DNA from: an uncultured Planctomycetota bacterium
GTDB lineage: Bacteria; Planctomycetota; Planctomycetia; Isosphaerales; Isosphaeraceae
DNA: 64,000 nt
Direction: 5' to 3'
Assembly (NCBI GenBank): GCA_963823665.1
Contig: CAWGMQ010000005.1
Span: 576,001-640,000 of the forward strand
Positions 50,186 to 64,000 of the stretch are shown here, piece by piece (position 1 is the stretch's first letter; every line of letters begins with the position of its first letter). A model generated the notes under the pieces. The model did no database searches. It saw only the letters and a program-made list of their open reading frames with translations, and had not been told where the DNA came from. Made by a program: the position numbers and the translations under genes.

Positions 50186-50575
50186 GAGGATCCTCCAGGC
50201 GATGCCCGTGAGTACTTGTTGACCGTGCTCCTGCGGCTCGGGGCTTATTTCGCCGAGGTCATCCCCCTGGCCCTTCGAGTCATGATGCACCCGTCGTTCG
50301 ACCCGGATTCGTTCTCCCGCACCGTACCCGGCGGCCCGGTGGAGCTGCGGGAGGGCCTGGCAAAACGGCTGGCCTCACTCGCGCACGGCAGCAGCTTTCG
50401 ATCTCGGACGAAGTCGTGCTGGCACGTCTCCTCCTGAGCCTCGCGCACGACTGGGCGCTGGGAGTCGCGTTCGCCCACGGGAAGGTTCCCAGAAACGACC
50501 GCAGGCTGGAGGAATTCTTGGAGGTTCTGTGGAAGGGGCTGAATCGGCGAGAGGGGTGAGAGACACTCGTCGGTT
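50170..50575 (+). pseudogene. C-terminal fragment of a TetR-like regulator
   Basis: GDAREYLLTVLLRLGAYFAEVIP...EEFLEVLWKGL, frameshifted, no HTH. Confidence 0.45.
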
Positions 50576-50890
50576 AGCTGGAGCGCTTGACTCGCCGGCT
50601 TTTCGCTGTGGTTGCTTTTCGTTCTTGCGCGCGTTTGCGAACAGCGTCCCAGAAGTCCGCCTCGGACAAGCCCTTCCCATGCTTGATGCTTTGCCTGGAG
50701 CGGTTGAGGAGCGATTGAAAACGCGGTGAACGCTCGAGCATAAGCCGTTCCAAGTCATCGTCGTCGTACGGAACCAGTAGCACGGCCACGGCTTTGCCAT
50801 TGCGAGTGATGACCAGAGGGCCCTGCGCGCCGCACTCGTCCAGATAAGCGCTCAATCGCGCCTTCACGTCCGCCAGGGCGCAATCCTCAT
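50574..50890 (-). CDS. Phd/YefM-family antitoxin, 1-nt frameshift near 50878
   Basis: MRIA(P)LADVKARLSAYL..GPLVITRNGKAVAVL; GAGGAG RBS. Confidence 0.85.
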
Positions 50891-56355: not shown

Positions 56356-56384
56356 TTTACACCATTCCGGCCGTCTGATACGCT
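56356..56384 (+). promoter_or_regulatory. Sigma70-type promoter of the WXG100-like/FtsK operon
   Basis: TTTACA-17 nt-TACGCT with an extended -10 TG, about 70 nt before ATG 56454. Confidence 0.55.
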
Positions 56385-56453
56385 CGCAAATGGACCATGT
56401 CCCGGCCCGTCAGAGCGACTGCCGGCGCCTGTCTGACCTCGCGGGCATAACAC

Positions 56454-57158
56454 ATGAGCTCACAAGTCTCGGTCCGCTCGATTGACTCTCTCAAGGAACT
56501 ACGCGTCGCGCTGGCCTTGTACGGCGAAGACACGCTCGGGGCCCTCGGGGCCGTGGAAGCCGAGGTTCGCCGCACGGTGAGGTGGCTTCAGGAAGTGCAG
56601 CCGGTCTACTGGCAAGACCAGATCAAGCGCCGCCGCGAGAAGGTCTCGATGGCCCGTGCCGAGGTATTCAAGAAGAACTTGCAGAAACGCGCCGATTACA
56701 GCCCGCCGATGTCCGAGCAGAAAGAGAACCTGCGCAAGGCCGAGGCCAGTCTCCAGGATGCAGAAAAACGCTACGCGGCCGTCAAGAAGTGGCAGCCCCT
56801 GTTCAAGCAAGCCGTCCTCGAATATCACGGCAGCGTCCAGCGACTCAAGGATCTTTCGGCGGGTGATGTTCCGCGCGCCGTGAACCTGCTCAGCCGGATG
56901 ATCGACTCGCTCGAATCCTATCTCCGGGTGACGGCGCCTTCAGGCCTCGAAACTCTCCCGTCGTCCGGCTCCGGCGCCGGGACATCGATGGCGATTCCGA
57001 CTGCCCAGGTCGATACGGTCGCGGTGCAGGCCCTCGATGAAGCCGAGGCCGCCGCCGCGCTCGAGGCCAAGGCCAAGGCCTCAGATCAGTCGGCTGCCGG
57101 CGCCGCCGCCGCCGTAGAGCCCGCGTCGCCTTCAAACGACGAGGCCGTCGATGCCTGA
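56454..57158 (+). CDS. Helical/coiled-coil hypothetical protein with an Ala/Ser-rich tail
   Basis: 234-aa ORF; amphipathic helices; 8-nt overlap with the next gene. Confidence 0.8.
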   Translation: MSSQVSVRSIDSLKELRVALALYGEDTLGALGAVEAEVRRTVRWLQEVQPVYWQDQIKRRREKVSMARAEVFKKNLQKRADYSPPMSEQKENLRKAEASLQDAEKRYAAVKKWQPLFKQAVLEYHGSVQRLKDLSAGDVPRAVNLLSRMIDSLESYLRVTAPSGLETLPSSGSGAGTSMAIPTAQVDTVAVQALDEAEAAAALEAKAKASDQSAAGAAAAVEPASPSNDEAVDA

Positions 57159-57390
57159 CGCAAAAATCCTCGCGGGCGCGACCCGTCTGAAGCAGACCAC
57201 ACGCGTCCTGCGGGACTTGTGGCTCTCGACCGAGGCAGGCTGGGGCGACGCCGTTCGCCAGCGCTTTGAGGAACGCTACCTCGCGCCCATCGACCCGGCT
57301 GTCGATTCCGCAATCAACGGCCTGCAGGCGATGGCCGAAATACTCGAACGAGTTCGACGCGATTGTTCCGATCGGAGTGAGATATTGTGA
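57151..57390 (+). CDS. WXG100/ESAT-6-like small protein
   Basis: 79 aa, two helices around a central W-G-D (LWLSTEAGWGDAVRQRFEERYL); no signal peptide. Confidence 0.7.
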   Translation: MPDAKILAGATRLKQTTRVLRDLWLSTEAGWGDAVRQRFEERYLAPIDPAVDSAINGLQAMAEILERVRRDCSDRSEIL

Positions 57391-60300
57391 CGACCTCGAC
57401 CACCGGCTTGCGCCCCCTGCCCTATCCCAGCACCGGCCCGAGCACGATGGGACACTCCGAGCCGGAAGTTCTCAAGCGCGAGCGAGCGGTCCTGCGGAAC
57501 GTGCTTGATCTGGTATCCCAGCGCGCCCAGGTCGAGGCGGAGGTTCACCTCGCTCGCACGTCGGGCGATCAGACCGCCGACTCGGAGTACGCGAAGGCAC
57601 GCCAGGCGCTGGCCGAGAAGCTCGAGAGGCTTGAGCGCGAGGCAGTCGCGGAGGACGAGAAGCAAAGGCGCGCGATCGTCACCGCGGGGATTGAGGGCGA
57701 GAACAAGTCCAAGGCCGAATTCGCCGCCGGCAGCCGCAAGATCGCCACGCTCTTCGACTCCGCGCGCGAAACCGTCAAAAGCGACTACGCAGCCGCCAAG
57801 TCCGATGCCGCCGCCACTCATGATTCGGCTCAGAAGAAGGCGGCCAGGCATAACGCCGAGAAGAGCAAGCCGATCGAGGATAGCGCGGGCATGGCTGACT
57901 CCGTCCGCAACCGTCTGGCCGTTCTCGCTGCCGAGTACAAGAAGTTCAAGCTCGATCCCGACCCGCCGTCGGCCGTGAGCGAGTCGTACGACAGGTTCGC
58001 TGATCCGGGCGACGAGCTCTTCACCCGGCTGGCGCGCATGGACCAGCCGCTCCGTCTTCTCGAGGGCCTGATCATTCCCAAGTCGATGAAAGGCGGTCGA
58101 GAATCCTGGGTCTTCATCTTGCTAATCTCGCTCTTTGCTGGTGCGGGCATGCTGCTCTTGGGCGACGTCACCGGCCTGGGTGTCGGTGTCGTCCTGGGTG
58201 GAGTTCTCGCGTTCTTGCTTCGCACGTGGCTCGTCAAGCTCTGCCACACCCAGCTCGAACGACTGTACACGCCGCTCACGCAATCACTGGCCGATGCCGA
58301 TGCGCTCACCGCTTTCTGCCGCGTCAAGGTCAGCAACGAGCTCAGGGAAGAACGCAAGAAAATCGCCCTCCGCCGGGAGGAAGACCTCAAACGCGCCGAC
58401 GACAACTACCGCAAGGCCTTCGCCGCCGCCGAAAGTGCGCGCGATGAAAAACTCCGCATGATCAATGAAAAGTACGCCAACCGGATGGTTGAAGTGCAGA
58501 CCACTCGCGAGCGAGAGCTGCGCAGCGCCATCGACGCCCATGACCGCCGCATGGCCGAGCTCAAATCGATGGCCGCGACCGGCTACCCCAAGCTCGAAGA
58601 GAGATTTAAGGCATACACGCAGCGGGTCCGCTCTGAACACGAGTCGGCGTGGAGTGCGCTCGCCGCGCGCTGGCGCGACGGCTTGAACCAGGCCGCGGCC
58701 GACTTGGCCGCGGTGGGTCGCGAGGTCGACGCCTTCTGCCCCGAATGGCACGACCAGGTCTGGCTGTCGCGGGCGCTGCCGAAACTGGTCCCCCCTGTGG
58801 TTCGCTTCGGCACGGTTCCCCTTGACCTTGCCACGCTGCCCGGCGGTGTTTCGAAATTCGCCGACTTGATGGAAGGCGTGCCCACGTCGTTCAACTTTCC
58901 CGCTCTGCGGCCCTTCCCGGCCAGTGCCAACCTCCTGATCGAGACACCCGCTGAGGCTCGCGGTGCCGCGCTCGAGGTTCTTCAGGCATCGATGTTCTCA
59001 TTGCTGGCCAGCCTGCCGCCGGGGCACGTTCGCTTCACGATCATCGACCCCATCGGCATCGGCCGCAACTTCGGCGCGTTCATGCATCTGGCTGACTATG
59101 ACGGTGCGCTCGTGACCACGCAGGTCTGGACCGACCCCCGCCAGATCGAGGAGCGGCTCGCCGACCTGGCTGCGCACATGGAAACCGTCACCCAGAAATA
59201 CCTCCGCAACGAGTATGCCACGATCGAAGAATACAACGCGGTCGCCGAGGAAGTCGCCGAGCCGTACCGCGTGCTCGTCGTCGCGGACTTTCCCACCAAG
59301 TTCGACGAGAAGTCGGCAGCCCGCCTGGCCGCAATCGCATCGGGAGGGGTTCCGTGCGGCGTCCTGACGCTGGTCGCCGCCGACACGTCCAAGCCCCTTC
59401 CCCTCGGATTCAGTCTCGATGAGCTCCGCCCGTCGTGTGCCCACCTCATCTGGGATGCTGCGAGCACTCGGCTGGTCTGGGACGACCCACATTTCGGCAC
59501 GTACCCCCTTGCGCTCCTCGGGCCTCCGCTCGCCGAGTTCGCCACGGCCGAAATCCAGAAAATCGGCTCGGCCGCCAGGGATGCCAAGCGGGTCGAGGTG
59601 CCCTTCGATTTCATCAGCCCGTCCGACCATCGGTACTGGACCCGAGACAGCCGCGGCGGGATCGACGTTCCGCTCGGCAAGGCCGGCGCCACCAAGCGCC
59701 AGCACTTCACGCTCGGTCATGGAACATCCCAGCATGTGCTGATCGCCGGGCGCACCGGCTCGGGCAAGTCGACGCTCATGCATGCCCTGATCGTCAACCT
59801 CGCCTTGAATTACAGCCCCGACGAGATCGACCTCTATCTGATTGACTTCAAGAAAGGGGTCGAGTTCAAGGTTTATGCTACCTACGAATTCCCCCACTCG
59901 AGCGTCGTCGCGATCGAGAGCGAGCGCGAATTCGGCATCAGCGTGCTCGAGCGGCTGGATGCCGAGCTCCGCCTGAGAGCCGACCGGTTCCGCGACGCCG
60001 GCGTGCAAGACGTAGCCGGCTACCGCAACACCCCCGGTACGCCCCCGCTGCCGCGCATCCTCTTGATCGTCGACGAATTCCAGGAGTTCTTCAGCGAGGA
60101 AGACAAGCTCGCCCAGGAAGCCGCACTGTGGCTCGATCGCCTGGTGCGCCAGGGCCGAGCCTTCGGCATCCACATCATCCTCGGCTCCCAGAGCCTGGGC
60201 GGCGCGTTCACGCTTGCCCGTAGCACCCTGGGCCAGATGGCAGTGCGCATCGCACTCCAGTGCAGTGAGAACGATGCTCACTTGATCTTGAGCGAAAACA

Positions 60301-61385
60301 ACATCGCCCCCCGTATGCTCTCGCGCCCCGGCGAAGCCATTTACAACGATGCCAACGGCGCTCCCGAGGGCAACCACTTCTTCCAGGTTGTCTGGCTTTC
60401 GGAGGAGCGCCGCGAAGCGCATCTGAAAGAGTTGCTGGAGATGGCGCGAGCGCAAAAGCCTGTGCTTGCTCGCTCGCCGATCGTGTTCGAAGGAGACGCC
60501 CCCGCGGTGCTGGCGCGCAACCAACTGCTCCAGGCCCGGCTTCAGAGCCCAGCGTGGCCCGAATCACCCCGTTCCGCGCAGGCCTGGGTGGGCGAAGCCA
60601 TCTCGATCAAAGACCCGACGCACGCGCTGTTCCGCCGCCAGGGAGCGAACAACCTTCTGATCGTCGGACAGAACGAGGAAGCGGCGCTGGGAGTCTCGGT
60701 TGCGGTCCTGATCAGCCTGGCCGCCCAGTTCTCACCGGCCGCCTCCGATGCGGTTCGCCAGGGAGCTCGTTTCTACATACTCGACGGCACGCCCGAAGAC
60801 AGCCCCAATGCCGGAGTTCTCGCTCGGGTCTGTGCGGCCTTACCACAAACGCCCGAGCTCGGCGGCTGGCGAGAGCTCGGTCAGATACTCACCACGGTGG
60901 CCGCCGAGGTCAAACGCCGCCAGGAGGCCAAGACCGACGGTCCGGAGCTCTTCCTTCTGATCCACGACCTACCGCGCTTCCGCGACTTGAGGCGCCGGGA
61001 GGATGACTTCAGCTTCTCGCGCAAGGACGACGAGGAAGCCACTCCCCCCGACCAGCTCGAGGTGATTCTGCGCGAAGGGCCGGTACTGGGCGTGCACTTG
61101 ATCACCTGGTGCGACACCGTCAACAACCTCAATCGCTTCTTCGCTCACCAGATCCTGCGCGAGTTCGAGATGCGGGTGCTGTTCCAGATGAGCCCGAACG
61201 ACTCCGGCCACATGCTCGACGCCCCCGCCGCCAGCAAGCTGGGCCCGCATCGAGCGCTCTTCCACAGCGAAGAACAAAACCGCCTAGAAAAGTTCCGCCC
61301 GTACGGAATCCCGAGCCCAGAATGGCTCGATTCCCTCGGCAAGCAATTGAGCCAGCGCCCTGCACCGGGCGGGTCGGCCTCATAG
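57387..61385 (+). CDS. Membrane FtsK/SpoIIIE-domain ATPase (EccC/EssC-like)
   Basis: Coiled coils, two TM helices, HVLIAGRTGSGKS (Walker A), LIDFKKG, LLIVDEFQE (Walker B), RQGRAFGIH; degenerate ATPase-like domains on both sides. Confidence 0.92.
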   Translation: MTTSTTGLRPLPYPSTGPSTMGHSEPEVLKRERAVLRNVLDLVSQRAQVEAEVHLARTSGDQTADSEYAKARQALAEKLERLEREAVAEDEKQRRAIVTAGIEGENKSKAEFAAGSRKIATLFDSARETVKSDYAAAKSDAAATHDSAQKKAARHNAEKSKPIEDSAGMADSVRNRLAVLAAEYKKFKLDPDPPSAVSESYDRFADPGDELFTRLARMDQPLRLLEGLIIPKSMKGGRESWVFILLISLFAGAGMLLLGDVTGLGVGVVLGGVLAFLLRTWLVKLCHTQLERLYTPLTQSLADADALTAFCRVKVSNELREERKKIALRREEDLKRADDNYRKAFAAAESARDEKLRMINEKYANRMVEVQTTRERELRSAIDAHDRRMAELKSMAATGYPKLEERFKAYTQRVRSEHESAWSALAARWRDGLNQAAADLAAVGREVDAFCPEWHDQVWLSRALPKLVPPVVRFGTVPLDLATLPGGVSKFADLMEGVPTSFNFPALRPFPASANLLIETPAEARGAALEVLQASMFSLLASLPPGHVRFTIIDPIGIGRNFGAFMHLADYDGALVTTQVWTDPRQIEERLADLAAHMETVTQKYLRNEYATIEEYNAVAEEVAEPYRVLVVADFPTKFDEKSAARLAAIASGGVPCGVLTLVAADTSKPLPLGFSLDELRPSCAHLIWDAASTRLVWDDPHFGTYPLALLGPPLAEFATAEIQKIGSAARDAKRVEVPFDFISPSDHRYWTRDSRGGIDVPLGKAGATKRQHFTLGHGTSQHVLIAGRTGSGKSTLMHALIVNLALNYSPDEIDLYLIDFKKGVEFKVYATYEFPHSSVVAIESEREFGISVLERLDAELRLRADRFRDAGVQDVAGYRNTPGTPPLPRILLIVDEFQEFFSEEDKLAQEAALWLDRLVRQGRAFGIHIILGSQSLGGAFTLARSTLGQMAVRIALQCSENDAHLILSENNIAPRMLSRPGEAIYNDANGAPEGNHFFQVVWLSEERREAHLKELLEMARAQKPVLARSPIVFEGDAPAVLARNQLLQARLQSPAWPESPRSAQAWVGEAISIKDPTHALFRRQGANNLLIVGQNEEAALGVSVAVLISLAAQFSPAASDAVRQGARFYILDGTPEDSPNAGVLARVCAALPQTPELGGWRELGQILTTVAAEVKRRQEAKTDGPELFLLIHDLPRFRDLRRREDDFSFSRKDDEEATPPDQLEVILREGPVLGVHLITWCDTVNNLNRFFAHQILREFEMRVLFQMSPNDSGHMLDAPAASKLGPHRALFHSEEQNRLEKFRPYGIPSPEWLDSLGKQLSQRPAPGGSAS

Positions 61386-61532: not shown

Positions 61533-64000
61533 ATGCTTTACGCACGCCTGGTCTTCCTTGGAGTGATCGTCTGTGCAATCATGGCCCTTGGTGTCACCAT
61601 GGCGAAGCGCTCTGAACAACCTTCGGATCGCGAGCGATTCGACAAGCTCTTCGCGGACGGTAATTACAAGGACGCTTACGACGGCTACCGCCGGCTCGCC
61701 CTCGACCCCAAGACCGAGCCCGACCGCGTCGGCACCGACTTGAAGCAGGCGCTTCAGTGCCTGAATTCCTTGGGCAGGACCGTTGAAAAGGATGAATTCC
61801 TGGAAGCCGTTGTCGCCGCGCACCCGGCGAACTGGCGGCTGCTCCAGGCGGCCGCCGAAAGCTACTTGTTGGGGAACGACCACTGGGGCGCAATCGTCGC
61901 CGGAAAGTTCCGCCGCGGCGAGCGGGCGAACGGCCAGACGGCCGGCGCGTACGAGCGCGATCGTGCCCGCGCTATTCAGCTTCTGATTTCCGGAATCGAC
62001 CGCGCCCGCACTGATCCCGATCGCCGTGCGGTGGGCCATTACTTCCATTTCCTCTCCCAGGTCTTCATGGCGAACCGCGCAGATCGAGTCGTGGCGGCTC
62101 CAGAGCCTGACGTCAGTCGATCTGCTGCCCGATTATGACAGCAATCCGTCCTGGTTCTATGGTGCAACGGGCTCCGGCGCACCCATCGAGCCTGATGGCT
62201 CTCCCGTTTATTATCGCGTGCCGGAAAGCCTCGCAAAAGCCAGCAACGACGGTCAGCGCTGGCGCTGGGCACTCGTGCAGGCCACGGAAGCCGACCCAGG
62301 CCTGCTCGACACCACGCGCTCGGATCTGGCCGCATTCCTGCTCGAGCAGTTCGGCACCCAGACGATCATCGGCCATGACATGCCGCCCTCTTCCGATGGT
62401 GGTGACGCCGAAGCCACCGGCCCTTACGCTCTGGATACACTCAAAGACGACGAGACGATTGCCTGGCTGGCTTCCGGAATCAAGCGGTTCAAGCTTCCCG
62501 ACGAATTCAATCCCATCAAGATCTACCAGGCAATCTTCGACGACCGCAAGACCGGACAGGGAGAGGTCGCTCTTGACTCACTCGCGTCGATCCTCGAAAA
62601 CCGCCGGCAATTCGATGCCGCCGCGGATTATCTGAAAACAAGCCGGGATCTCTACGGCGACAAAGACGAAAATAAGAAACATCAGATCGAACAGATCCTC
62701 GGCGCGTGGGGCCAGTTTGACCAGCTCATGACTCTGCCCGCAGGCGGCGGTGCAACCGTCGATTTCCGCTTCCGCAACGGCAAACAGGTTCACTTCGAGG
62801 CGCACGAGATCCTCTTCTCCAAGCTGCTCAAGGACGCCCAGGACTACATCTCATCTGCGCCAAACAACTCGACTGGCAGAAGTTCGATATCAGCGACGTC
62901 GGCTCCCGGTTGGTGATGATGGATCAGAAAGAGTACATAGGACGCTCGGTCGCCCGCTGGGACCTGGACCTCGAGCCGCGCCCCCGCCATTTCGACCGGC
63001 GAATCACCGTCACGACGCCCCTCCAGAAGGCAGGCGCCTATCTCCTGACCGCCACGATGGAGGGAGGCAACGTGAGCCGCATCGTCGTCTGGCTCGACGA
63101 CACCGTGATTCTGAAGAAACCGCTCCGGGACGAGGCTTACTACTTCGTCGCCGACTCGCGAACCGGCCAGGGCGTCGCTGGAGCAAACATCGACTTCTTC
63201 GGATGGCGCCTCGTGCAGGTTCCGGGTAAAAACGAGCAACGCGTCGAAGCCAGGACGCTCGCCCGAAAATCCGACTCGTCCGGTCAGCTCCGCCTCAGGA
63301 CCGCCGACCTGGGTGACCAGTATGGAACTTTCCAGTGGGTCATCACGGCCGCCACCCCGGCGGGCCGCCTGGCCCATCTTGGTTTCTCGAACATCTGGGC
63401 CTATGGCCGCCCCGTTCCCGCCTTTGACCAGGTGAGGGTCTACACCATCACCGACCGCCCCGTCTATCGCCCGGGCGCCCCGGTGCGTTTCAAGTTCTGG
63501 GTCGCGCGCAGCCGCTACGATCAGCCCGAGAAAGCTGACTTCGCCGGCCAGTCATTCAACGTGGAGATCCAGAATCCCAAAGGTGAAAAAGTATTCACAA
63601 AGAACTTCACGGCCGACAATTTCGGAGGCTTCGACGGCTCGTTCGAGCTACCATCCGACGCCGCCCTCGGCGTCTATCAGGTGCACATCCCGAATCGCGG
63701 CGGTGGGTCGTTCCGGGTTGAAGAGTACAAGAAACCCGAGTTCGAGGTCGCCGTGACGGCTCCTGATAAACCGGTGATGCTCGGCGAAAAAGCGGCGGCG
63801 ACCATCAAGGCGAATTATTACTTCGGCGGGCCTGTCGCCCAGGCCAAAGTCAAGTACAAGATCACGCGCACAACGGCCGACGAGCGCTGGTACCCTGCCG
63901 CGGCTTGGGACTGGCTCTTCGGTCCGGGTTACTGGTGGTTTGCGCCTGAATCCGCGTGGTATCCCGGCTGGTCGAGGTGGGGCATGCGCAGACCGGCGGT
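61533..64000 (+). CDS. Bacterial alpha-2-macroglobulin-family (MG2 domain) protein; runs off the window; frameshifts near 62083 and 62866
   Basis: Signal peptide; third-frame YTITDRPVYRPG, FRVEEYKKPEFEV, ANYYFGGPV. Confidence 0.88.

Follow-up and report, generated by a model that had tools for sequence, protein, structure and literature searches.

An A-less paralog of a WXG100-ATPase gene module with inferred type VII secretion-like working in a planctomycete family

A stretch of 64,000 nucleotides from an uncultured member of the Isosphaeraceae (Planctomycetota; GCA_963823665.1, contig CAWGMQ010000005.1, positions 576,001 to 640,000; hereafter the window) carries three genes on the plus strand, which we call B (56454-57158; 234 amino acids, aa), C (57151-57390; 79 aa), and D (57387-61385; 1332 aa). 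D is an FtsK/HerA-superfamily ATPase of the YueA/EccC-like kind. The locus is a paralog of a four-gene module, A-B-C-D, from which gene A is missing, and it belongs to one family-level clade of such A-less copies. The module itself belongs to a known class. By analogy, we infer that it works in the manner of type VII secretion systems (T7SS), and it falls outside both T7SSa and T7SSb. What is new here is the A-less paralog, the predicted pairing of B with C, and a B that looks like a toxin-type carrier without cargo. An earlier sequence-only reading had taken the three genes for a self-contained minimal system. That view did not hold, as the canonical WXG100 gene A of the four-gene module sits on another contig of the same genome (C8).

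The paralogous locus on C8 contains A, B, C, and D. Its A is a canonical WXG100 protein above the Pfam cut-off; identity to the window proteins is 38% for its B and 30% for its C. A search for a canonical WXG100 gene elsewhere in the genome led to this A, the genome's single copy; none adjoins the window B-C-D. The best PDB match of A is HP0062 of Helicobacter pylori (E = 1.2e-5), and a W-R-D turn is found in both. The C8 copy of D (L033 11884-16060, minus strand, or G000:C8:1083883-1088059) is split by a frameshift just past Walker A. The split is likely an assembly error, because similar splits occur in several long-read genomes of the family. Just upstream of A on C8 are two paralogous genes with multiple membrane helices and no Pfam match (L033 17564-19150, minus strand); the pair is not a conserved neighbor in other loci.

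Window-type copies of D form one clade of 16 rows (Shimodaira-Hasegawa-like approximate likelihood ratio test support 100, in a tree of 57 of the 96 aligned rows) that spans many genera at 56-91% identity. Every window-type locus with upstream sequence (15/15) has B and C and no A. A row from the window's family falls together with a Singulisphaera record, in keeping with the Isosphaeraceae. Statements of presence or absence across genomes rest on searches of genome sets. Counted by identity, a window-type copy occurs in about 26 of 60 family genomes, most of which also have a full copy and a single A. Across the family, D was found in 58/60 sampled genomes, B in 58/60, and A in 55/60, the last nearly always as a single copy and up to 98% identical between genera. 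Phylum-wide, the counts are 20/200 for D and 33/300 for B. The module is absent from several complete genomes of the same class, and four same-class genomes without D are also without A and B. A scan of named genomes in 2 of the collection's 64 parts yielded 70 loci (45 Planctomycetota, 19 Verrucomicrobiota, 6 other), with the order A-B-C-D in 51; the remainder are mostly cut contigs or D-only. Four genomes of another family (f2) retain both A and D with no partner gene beside them; in the two of these that are closed, A, B, and D are 0.5-2 Mb apart. Since A and D are kept there without neighboring partners, action of A in trans is plausible, with the reservation that these kin are not independent.

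The structural model of D (residues 140-1325; predicted local distance difference test, pLDDT, 88.7) shows, from the N-terminus on, a coiled coil, a pair of membrane helices, a helical stalk of great length, and three alpha/beta domains. Hydropathy and the model helices place the two predicted membrane helices at about residues 239-285 (58101..58241), with the hydrophobic pair itself spanning about 241-278, and the hairpin is followed by an unbroken helix of more than 100 residues. D0 (58914..59486) is a degenerate RecA-like domain without the Walker A lysine, recognized from model strands and helices and from the column profile. D1 (59649..60401) is the sole intact ATPase domain, with Walker A (GRTGSGKS) at residues 788-795, Walker B (DE) at 896-897, and RQGR at 921-924. 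D2 (60564..61316) is again a degenerate RecA-like domain by model and column profile, in which GQ replaces GK(S/T) and the Walker B DE is missing. Among the 96 aligned relatives of D, Walker A, Walker B, and RQGR are kept by the middle domain only, and the D1 catalytic columns are 100% conserved (96/96 rows). Pfam finds FtsK_SpoIIIE in D and neither the FtsK gamma nor the FtsK alpha domain. Hydropathy, model, and Pfam thus agree on an ATPase with two transmembrane helices and no gamma domain, as had been read from the sequence. Copies of D in the Planctomycetota-Verrucomicrobiota-Chlamydiota (PVC) bacteria retain the membrane hairpin. Two planctomycete genomes (L044 9042-15569, and L045) have A with a D that is devoid of membrane helices; B and C are missing, and a HEAT-repeat protein of about 980 aa comes next.

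The best sequence and fold matches of D are to EccC/EssC rather than to FtsK, in support of the earlier reading. NCBIfam models for EccCa (E = 2e-30), EssC, and EccCb rank ahead of FtsK (2e-6), all of them far below cut-off (for the EccC models, 106 bits against a 509-bit cut-off). The EccC of T. curvata ranks first in a sequence search of the PDB. A fold search with the D model puts EccC (4nh0) on top (E = 7.5e-32), with FtsK at 1.5e-14 and TcpA also among the matches. In a D1 tree of 31 rows, the 24 D-type ATPases, which include those of Caballeronia, Escherichia coli, Helicobacter, Rhodococcus, and Deinococcus, cluster by themselves (98/99), separate from three EccC/EssC rows and four FtsK/TcpA rows. 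Degenerate EccC/EssC D2 rows and nine PVC rows were dropped before this final tree, and an earlier D1 tree was without the FtsK outgroup.

C is predicted to be a helical hairpin (H4-29 and H34-76, pLDDT 91.8). The W31-x-D33 motif is invariant in 103/103 aligned relatives and C72 is conserved, which upholds the description of C as a two-helix protein with a central W-x-D. Its likeness to WXG100 proteins is supported as well. A C profile finds Staphylococcus aureus EsxA first in the PDB (E = 0.005), and WXG100 proteins fill nearly all of the top rows of a fold search, though with weak E-values (E > 0.3, none at E ≤ 0.001). PF06013 is matched weakly (E ≤ 0.1) by 18/103 relatives of C, TIGR03930 gives C 12.9 bits against a cut-off of 44.85, and the C and A profiles match with a probability of 56%. 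As a predicted hairpin of 79 aa, C fits the helix-turn-helix of about 100 aa that marks the WXG100 family; its turn is W-x-D, as in HP0062, instead of W-x-G.

Co-folding of B (residues 1-164) with C scored 0.80, and the best of three controls scored 0.00. Of 157 solved complexes, 116 attain the co-folding mark, as do 2 of 215 mismatched pairs. Contact agreement between the B-C runs was at least 91% and partner pLDDT at least 83. B and C are therefore predicted to form a four-helix heterodimer, in which C runs along the first and last helices of B and the tip of B (about residues 50-100) is free. This result may reflect likeness to solved WXG100 and PE-PPE bundles, without demonstrating binding. 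In the model, with the register extrapolated, the W-x-D turn of C would stand beside the terminal L-E-x-Y of B, a putative composite signal.

The part of B that was co-folded (residues 1-164; 56454..56945) is a long helical hairpin by alignment and model. It is the candidate carrier domain, and it ends in L-E-x-Y156, with Y156 invariant in 94/94 rows. Residues 165-234 (56946..57158) form a low-complexity Ala/Pro/Glu/Ser tail, in the place of which relatives have an Imm33-like, nuclease-like, or peptidase-like domain. As single sequences, neither B nor C has anything above cut-off in Pfam, NCBIfam, or PADLOC, and the B profile finds coiled-coil noise alone in the PDB. The B profile matches 3304 clusters (50% identity), and an Atlas search with B returned unnamed PVC clusters and B-Imm33. 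Profile comparisons of B with A (probability 8%) and with C (2%) are not significant. Among 107 B matches in genome loci, 104 have short Ala/Pro/Glu/Ser tails (median 45 aa) and three have Imm33-like ends; such ends are found in 28 of 32 long proteins chosen from the best 150 B profile matches.

Over about 165 residues, window B is 35-38% identical to the N-termini of three toxin-like proteins (L210, L213, and L217). Identity among these three N-termini is 67-86%, and still the end domains that they lead into are different and unrelated, nuclease- or peptidase-like. A third copy in a genome of the same family (G248; L197 3902-9962, plus strand) reads A, B with an HNH-like end, an Imm33-like gene, C, and D. 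Its carrier scores 95 bits with the B profile, and the end domain was named from GH-E (Atlas 0.94) and, by inspection, DHIxP...N...N, with no Pfam match. The Imm33-like gene is separate (62 bits). The island has a guanine-plus-cytosine (GC) content of 51-54%, against 62-69% in its flanks. In the D of this copy, inspection shows an S1-like insert within D0, and the gene is apparently frameshifted close to its start. Because of the identity to toxin-type N-termini and the gene order of L197, B resembles an LXG/PPE-like carrier without cargo. The earlier suggestion of an LXG/PPE-like partner protein is thus strengthened, the B-C complex having passed its controls and the N-terminus of B being homologous to toxin carriers.

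Metagenome loci extend this picture. They are the best 80 of 593, ranked by likeness to the L197 A, and cargo frequencies in them are therefore biased. B follows A in 79/80. Seven of the 70 complete B genes have tails over 100 aa, of which three are Imm33-like, two PD-(D/E)xK-like (by motif inspection, with one weak Pfam match), one HExxH metallopeptidase-like, and one without an assigned domain. For an eighth, a WHH nuclease is encoded in the reading frame that comes next. A metagenome scan with the L197 carrier as query gave no match, and searches of PHROGs and the PDB with the cargo domains gave no name. A conserved trafficking N-terminus, a variable toxin end, and an adjoining immunity gene, which together define polymorphic toxins, occur in L197, L210, L213, L217, and L208, with domain names partly from motif inspection; the window copy has neither toxin nor immunity gene. 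From these sequences, the ancestral cassette was probably A-[B-toxin]-immunity-C-D, and B-Imm33 fusions and bare tails would be states of toxin loss, a direction that we presume. Genes between C and D in L210 (2056-4451) and L213 (5957-9941) have N-termini weakly like the N-terminal coiled coil and membrane helix of D; the rest of these proteins consists of WD40 or TPR/3-keto-disaccharide hydrolase domains. They are possibly extra membrane parts in that lineage.

The module is closest to a class of mobile T7SS versions with solo WXG genes and a three-domain YueA-like ATPase (Zhang 2012; PMC3482391, Table 1 footnote 6), which the cited text places in planctomycetes, verrucomicrobia, and beta-, gamma-, and epsilonproteobacteria. 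The shared features are the ATPase layout, the phyla named, and, for the four-gene module, a WXG partner. By its model and Walker columns, D has three HerA/FtsK domains with the middle one active. The canonical A lies at the C8 locus, and the window holds the divergent WXG-like C only. Unlike that class as described in this source, the module is near-universal in the window's family, not sporadic. The same text confines T7SS-linked toxins to firmicutes, actinobacteria, and chloroflexi. HP0062 (PDB 3FX7/2GTS), the best PDB match of A, is a dimeric hairpin clustered with an FtsK/SpoIIIE protein, according to the portion of PMC3397514 cited. The window locus differs in having no A, and the Helicobacter-type ATPase (823 aa) has no stalk and no clear membrane hairpin.

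T7SSb (EssC, EsxA, and LXG proteins with Lap1/Lap2) has a single EsxA-like gene, a helical carrier with swappable ends, a small WXG-like partner, and one active ATPase domain in the accounts drawn on here (PMC9600955, PMC13355648), all of which the module resembles. In the former account, LXG-Lap complexes are described. The latter reports that toxin export requires EsxA, which does not bind the toxin complex, and that only the D1 Walker motifs are required. In contrast with T7SSb, the module has no EssB/YukC that we could find and no FHA domain listed; its carrier is not matched to LXG, it has one predicted partner vs two, and W-x-D replaces W-x-G. EssA and EsaA were outside the search. The module resembles T7SSa (ESX) in that EccC is the top match of D and in the B-C model, which is like a PE-PPE-type bundle with a free tip. 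It departs from T7SSa in the low EccC scores, in the separate D1 clade, in the number of RecA-like domains of D, and in that EccB and EccD were not found (MycP was outside the search). T7SSc-j are defined in Gram-positives only, as given in the part of PMC11217815 consulted. Our literature search found no experimental study of the A-B-C-D module, nor did it turn up any description of B; accounts of B or C may already exist in Sutcliffe 2011, Unnikrishnan 2017, or the Zhang 2012 supplements.

On analogy with these systems, we lean toward a reading in which D, in the inner membrane, would move B-C rods out of the cytoplasm by means of D1, using the composite W-x-D/L-E-x-Y signal and with A from C8 as an EsxA-like prerequisite. 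EccC rings are taken to line a pore. D would similarly form a ring with its membrane hairpins lining a pore, D1 alone would hydrolyze ATP, and D0 and D2 would be structural or read the substrate. B and C would pair into a rod that D pumps across the inner membrane, and A would help window-type export in trans. The module may have begun as a toxin-export cassette of which most PVC lineages lost the toxin and kept the machine, and the window copy would have the B-C rod itself for cargo. As no outer-membrane part is linked, the rod would get no farther than the periplasm.

A number of observations weigh against this export reading. According to the text cited from a 2023 review (PMC10765036), the WXG100/FtsK loci of Gram-negatives still await confirmation as secretion systems. 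Positive controls were detected in the 92%-complete source genome, and EccB, EccD, and EssB/YukC were not found in it, which agrees with the earlier statement that the locus lacks recognizable EccB/D and EssB; D itself has three RecA-like domains where EccC/EssC have four. YukD was rejected as a T7SS part, since both matches are in ubiquitin-like E1/E2/JAB operons (one via Pfam, one by inspection; L278 4327-8388 and L279 4244-7025, G000:C4). YukD-like matches occur in 21 of 23 family genomes tested; among 12 genomes that carry the module in other families, one has such a match. The D1 tree has three separate clades on long branches; as each clade makes up one whole side of a branch, EccC and FtsK cannot be ranked by nearness to D. 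C alone has no match to Pfam WXG100 (PF06013). The source genome has only two B matches and no orphan B-toxin gene. Two genomes, G227 (98% complete, 320 contigs) and G260 (87%), have a window-type copy and no A that we found.

Relatives, mostly outside the PVC bacteria, bear on the export reading too. The ATPases of Caballeronia, E. coli, Deinococcus, and the two planctomycete genomes mentioned above are without the membrane hairpin, and those of Helicobacter and two Rhodococcus have one weak hydrophobic stretch at most; a pore is therefore not universal. In E. coli ET734 (L179 4384-18436) and on a Caballeronia plasmid (L172), the module has a PD-(D/E)xK-like protein in the B slot. The order is A, a gene of 436-442 aa, a small gene, a gene of 73-76 aa, and D. 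The B profile matches the N-terminus of this proteobacterial B-slot family with a probability of 94% and a score of 51; none of 40 heptad-block shuffles scored above 30, and the coiled coils of D did not exceed 22. The C-terminus has an invariant E..D..ExK motif and is conserved, not polymorphic (39/80 matches aligned). The flanks hold vWA, CARF-nuclease, PP2C, kinase, and AAA genes, with bacteriophage exclusion (BREX) genes beside the E. coli copy. The L179-type module was found in 1 of 5426 E. coli genomes (distant blastn). On a Helicobacter plasmid the order is A, WHH nuclease, SMI1/KNR4, small gene, and D, and the protein in the B slot does not match the B profile. The Helicobacter B and C slots and the proteobacterial C slot were assigned by position alone. 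On a Rhodococcus plasmid (L174 6709-12139), a D-clade ATPase has a TerD domain joined to its N-terminus. Behind it come a B-like protein whose end resembles ParB (by inspection), a small gene, a gene like A, and ter genes.

Much of this would fit an intracellular stress or anti-phage switch, in which D strips C from B and so frees the cargo domain in the cytoplasm, the cargo-less planctomycete copies being regulatory. Such a switch could explain the several non-PVC ATPases without a hairpin, the conserved nuclease in the proteobacterial B slot, and the position of the E. coli and Caballeronia copies amid CARF-nuclease, TerY-P-like, and BREX genes. We nevertheless consider it unlikely. In Helicobacter (SMI1/KNR4 after WHH) and in L197 (Imm33-like), a dedicated immunity-type gene comes after the cargo gene, and close carriers swap their ends; exported polymorphic toxins show this pattern. 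None of A, B, and C is covered by a PADLOC model, and the PVC copies retain the membrane hairpin.

The strong retention of a toxin-free module in the family raises a second alternative, that the D stalk and the WXG100-like rods give the invaginated inner membrane its shape or anchor it, with export incidental if it occurs at all. Genes kept though scattered, an A nearly identical across genera, the 104/107 B matches free of cargo, and the long helix after the membrane hairpin would all suit such housekeeping. The module is no hallmark of the phylum, however, with the phylum-wide counts of D and B given above and its absence from several complete same-class genomes, and we rate this role as somewhat less probable again than the switch.

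A role of D in DNA translocation or conjugative coupling, with the small genes as accessories, is very improbable, in spite of its FtsK_SpoIIIE domain, the FtsK and TcpA fold matches, and a D1 tree compatible with FtsK kinship: FtsK/SpoIIIE translocases have a single motor with alpha and gamma domains, whereas D has three tandem RecA-like domains and no gamma domain, scores far higher with EccC, and is constantly linked to WXG100-like genes and never to mobility genes, and the genome has a separate canonical FtsK of 777 aa. No better is the prospect that the window copy, which has neither A nor cargo, is a decaying duplicate without function, given its intact frames, invariant catalytic residues, conserved promoter-like site, and membership of a 16-member clade diverged to 56-91% identity across many genera.

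Returning to export of B-C rods by D, a broader proposal can be put forward tentatively, as a possibility that we hold with less than even confidence. Gram-negatives may run a distinct type VII subtype with one membrane protein, whose own ATPase clade exports B-C rods. B would represent an unnamed family of polymorphic-toxin carriers, and in the Isosphaeraceae the toxin-free machine would have been domesticated and duplicated, giving two ATPases, each with a B-C pair of its own, that use a single EsxA-like protein in trans. The present analysis offers a likely substrate pair (B-C), likely signal residues, a planctomycete version with toxin plus immunity gene, and the arrangement of two ATPases with one EsxA. 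Should export prove real and D be its sole membrane protein, this would be the minimal type VII machine, and type VII toxin delivery would extend to diderms. If there is no export, a near-universal toxin-free ATPase module in the family still wants explanation.

Within the window, the open reading frames of B and C overlap by 8 nt and those of C and D by 4 nt (GTGA), in agreement with the coupling first read from the sequence, and the GC content of the locus is similar to that of the remainder of the window. Inspection of the small proteins, the only means used, revealed no signal peptides. A promoter-like site of the extended -10 type (56356..56384, plus strand) consists of TTTACA at 56356-61, a 17-nt spacer, and TACGCT at 56379-84 preceded by TG-n. 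The site matches 8/12 positions only and lies below the threshold of a promoter scanner, which listed 0 sites. The pattern is present upstream of B in 11/15 window-type loci, a partly circular count, as the pattern was partly derived from these loci. It occurs once in the window (the site itself) and six times in 555 kb of family loci, five being these sites. The upstream neighbor of B-C-D is a cyclase-family gene. Downstream is an alpha-2-macroglobulin-like gene (MG2, MG3, and bMG5 domains; 61533-64000, plus strand) spread over three frames, the splits being likely assembly indels. A Phd/YefM-type antitoxin gene is found at 50574-50867 on the minus strand.

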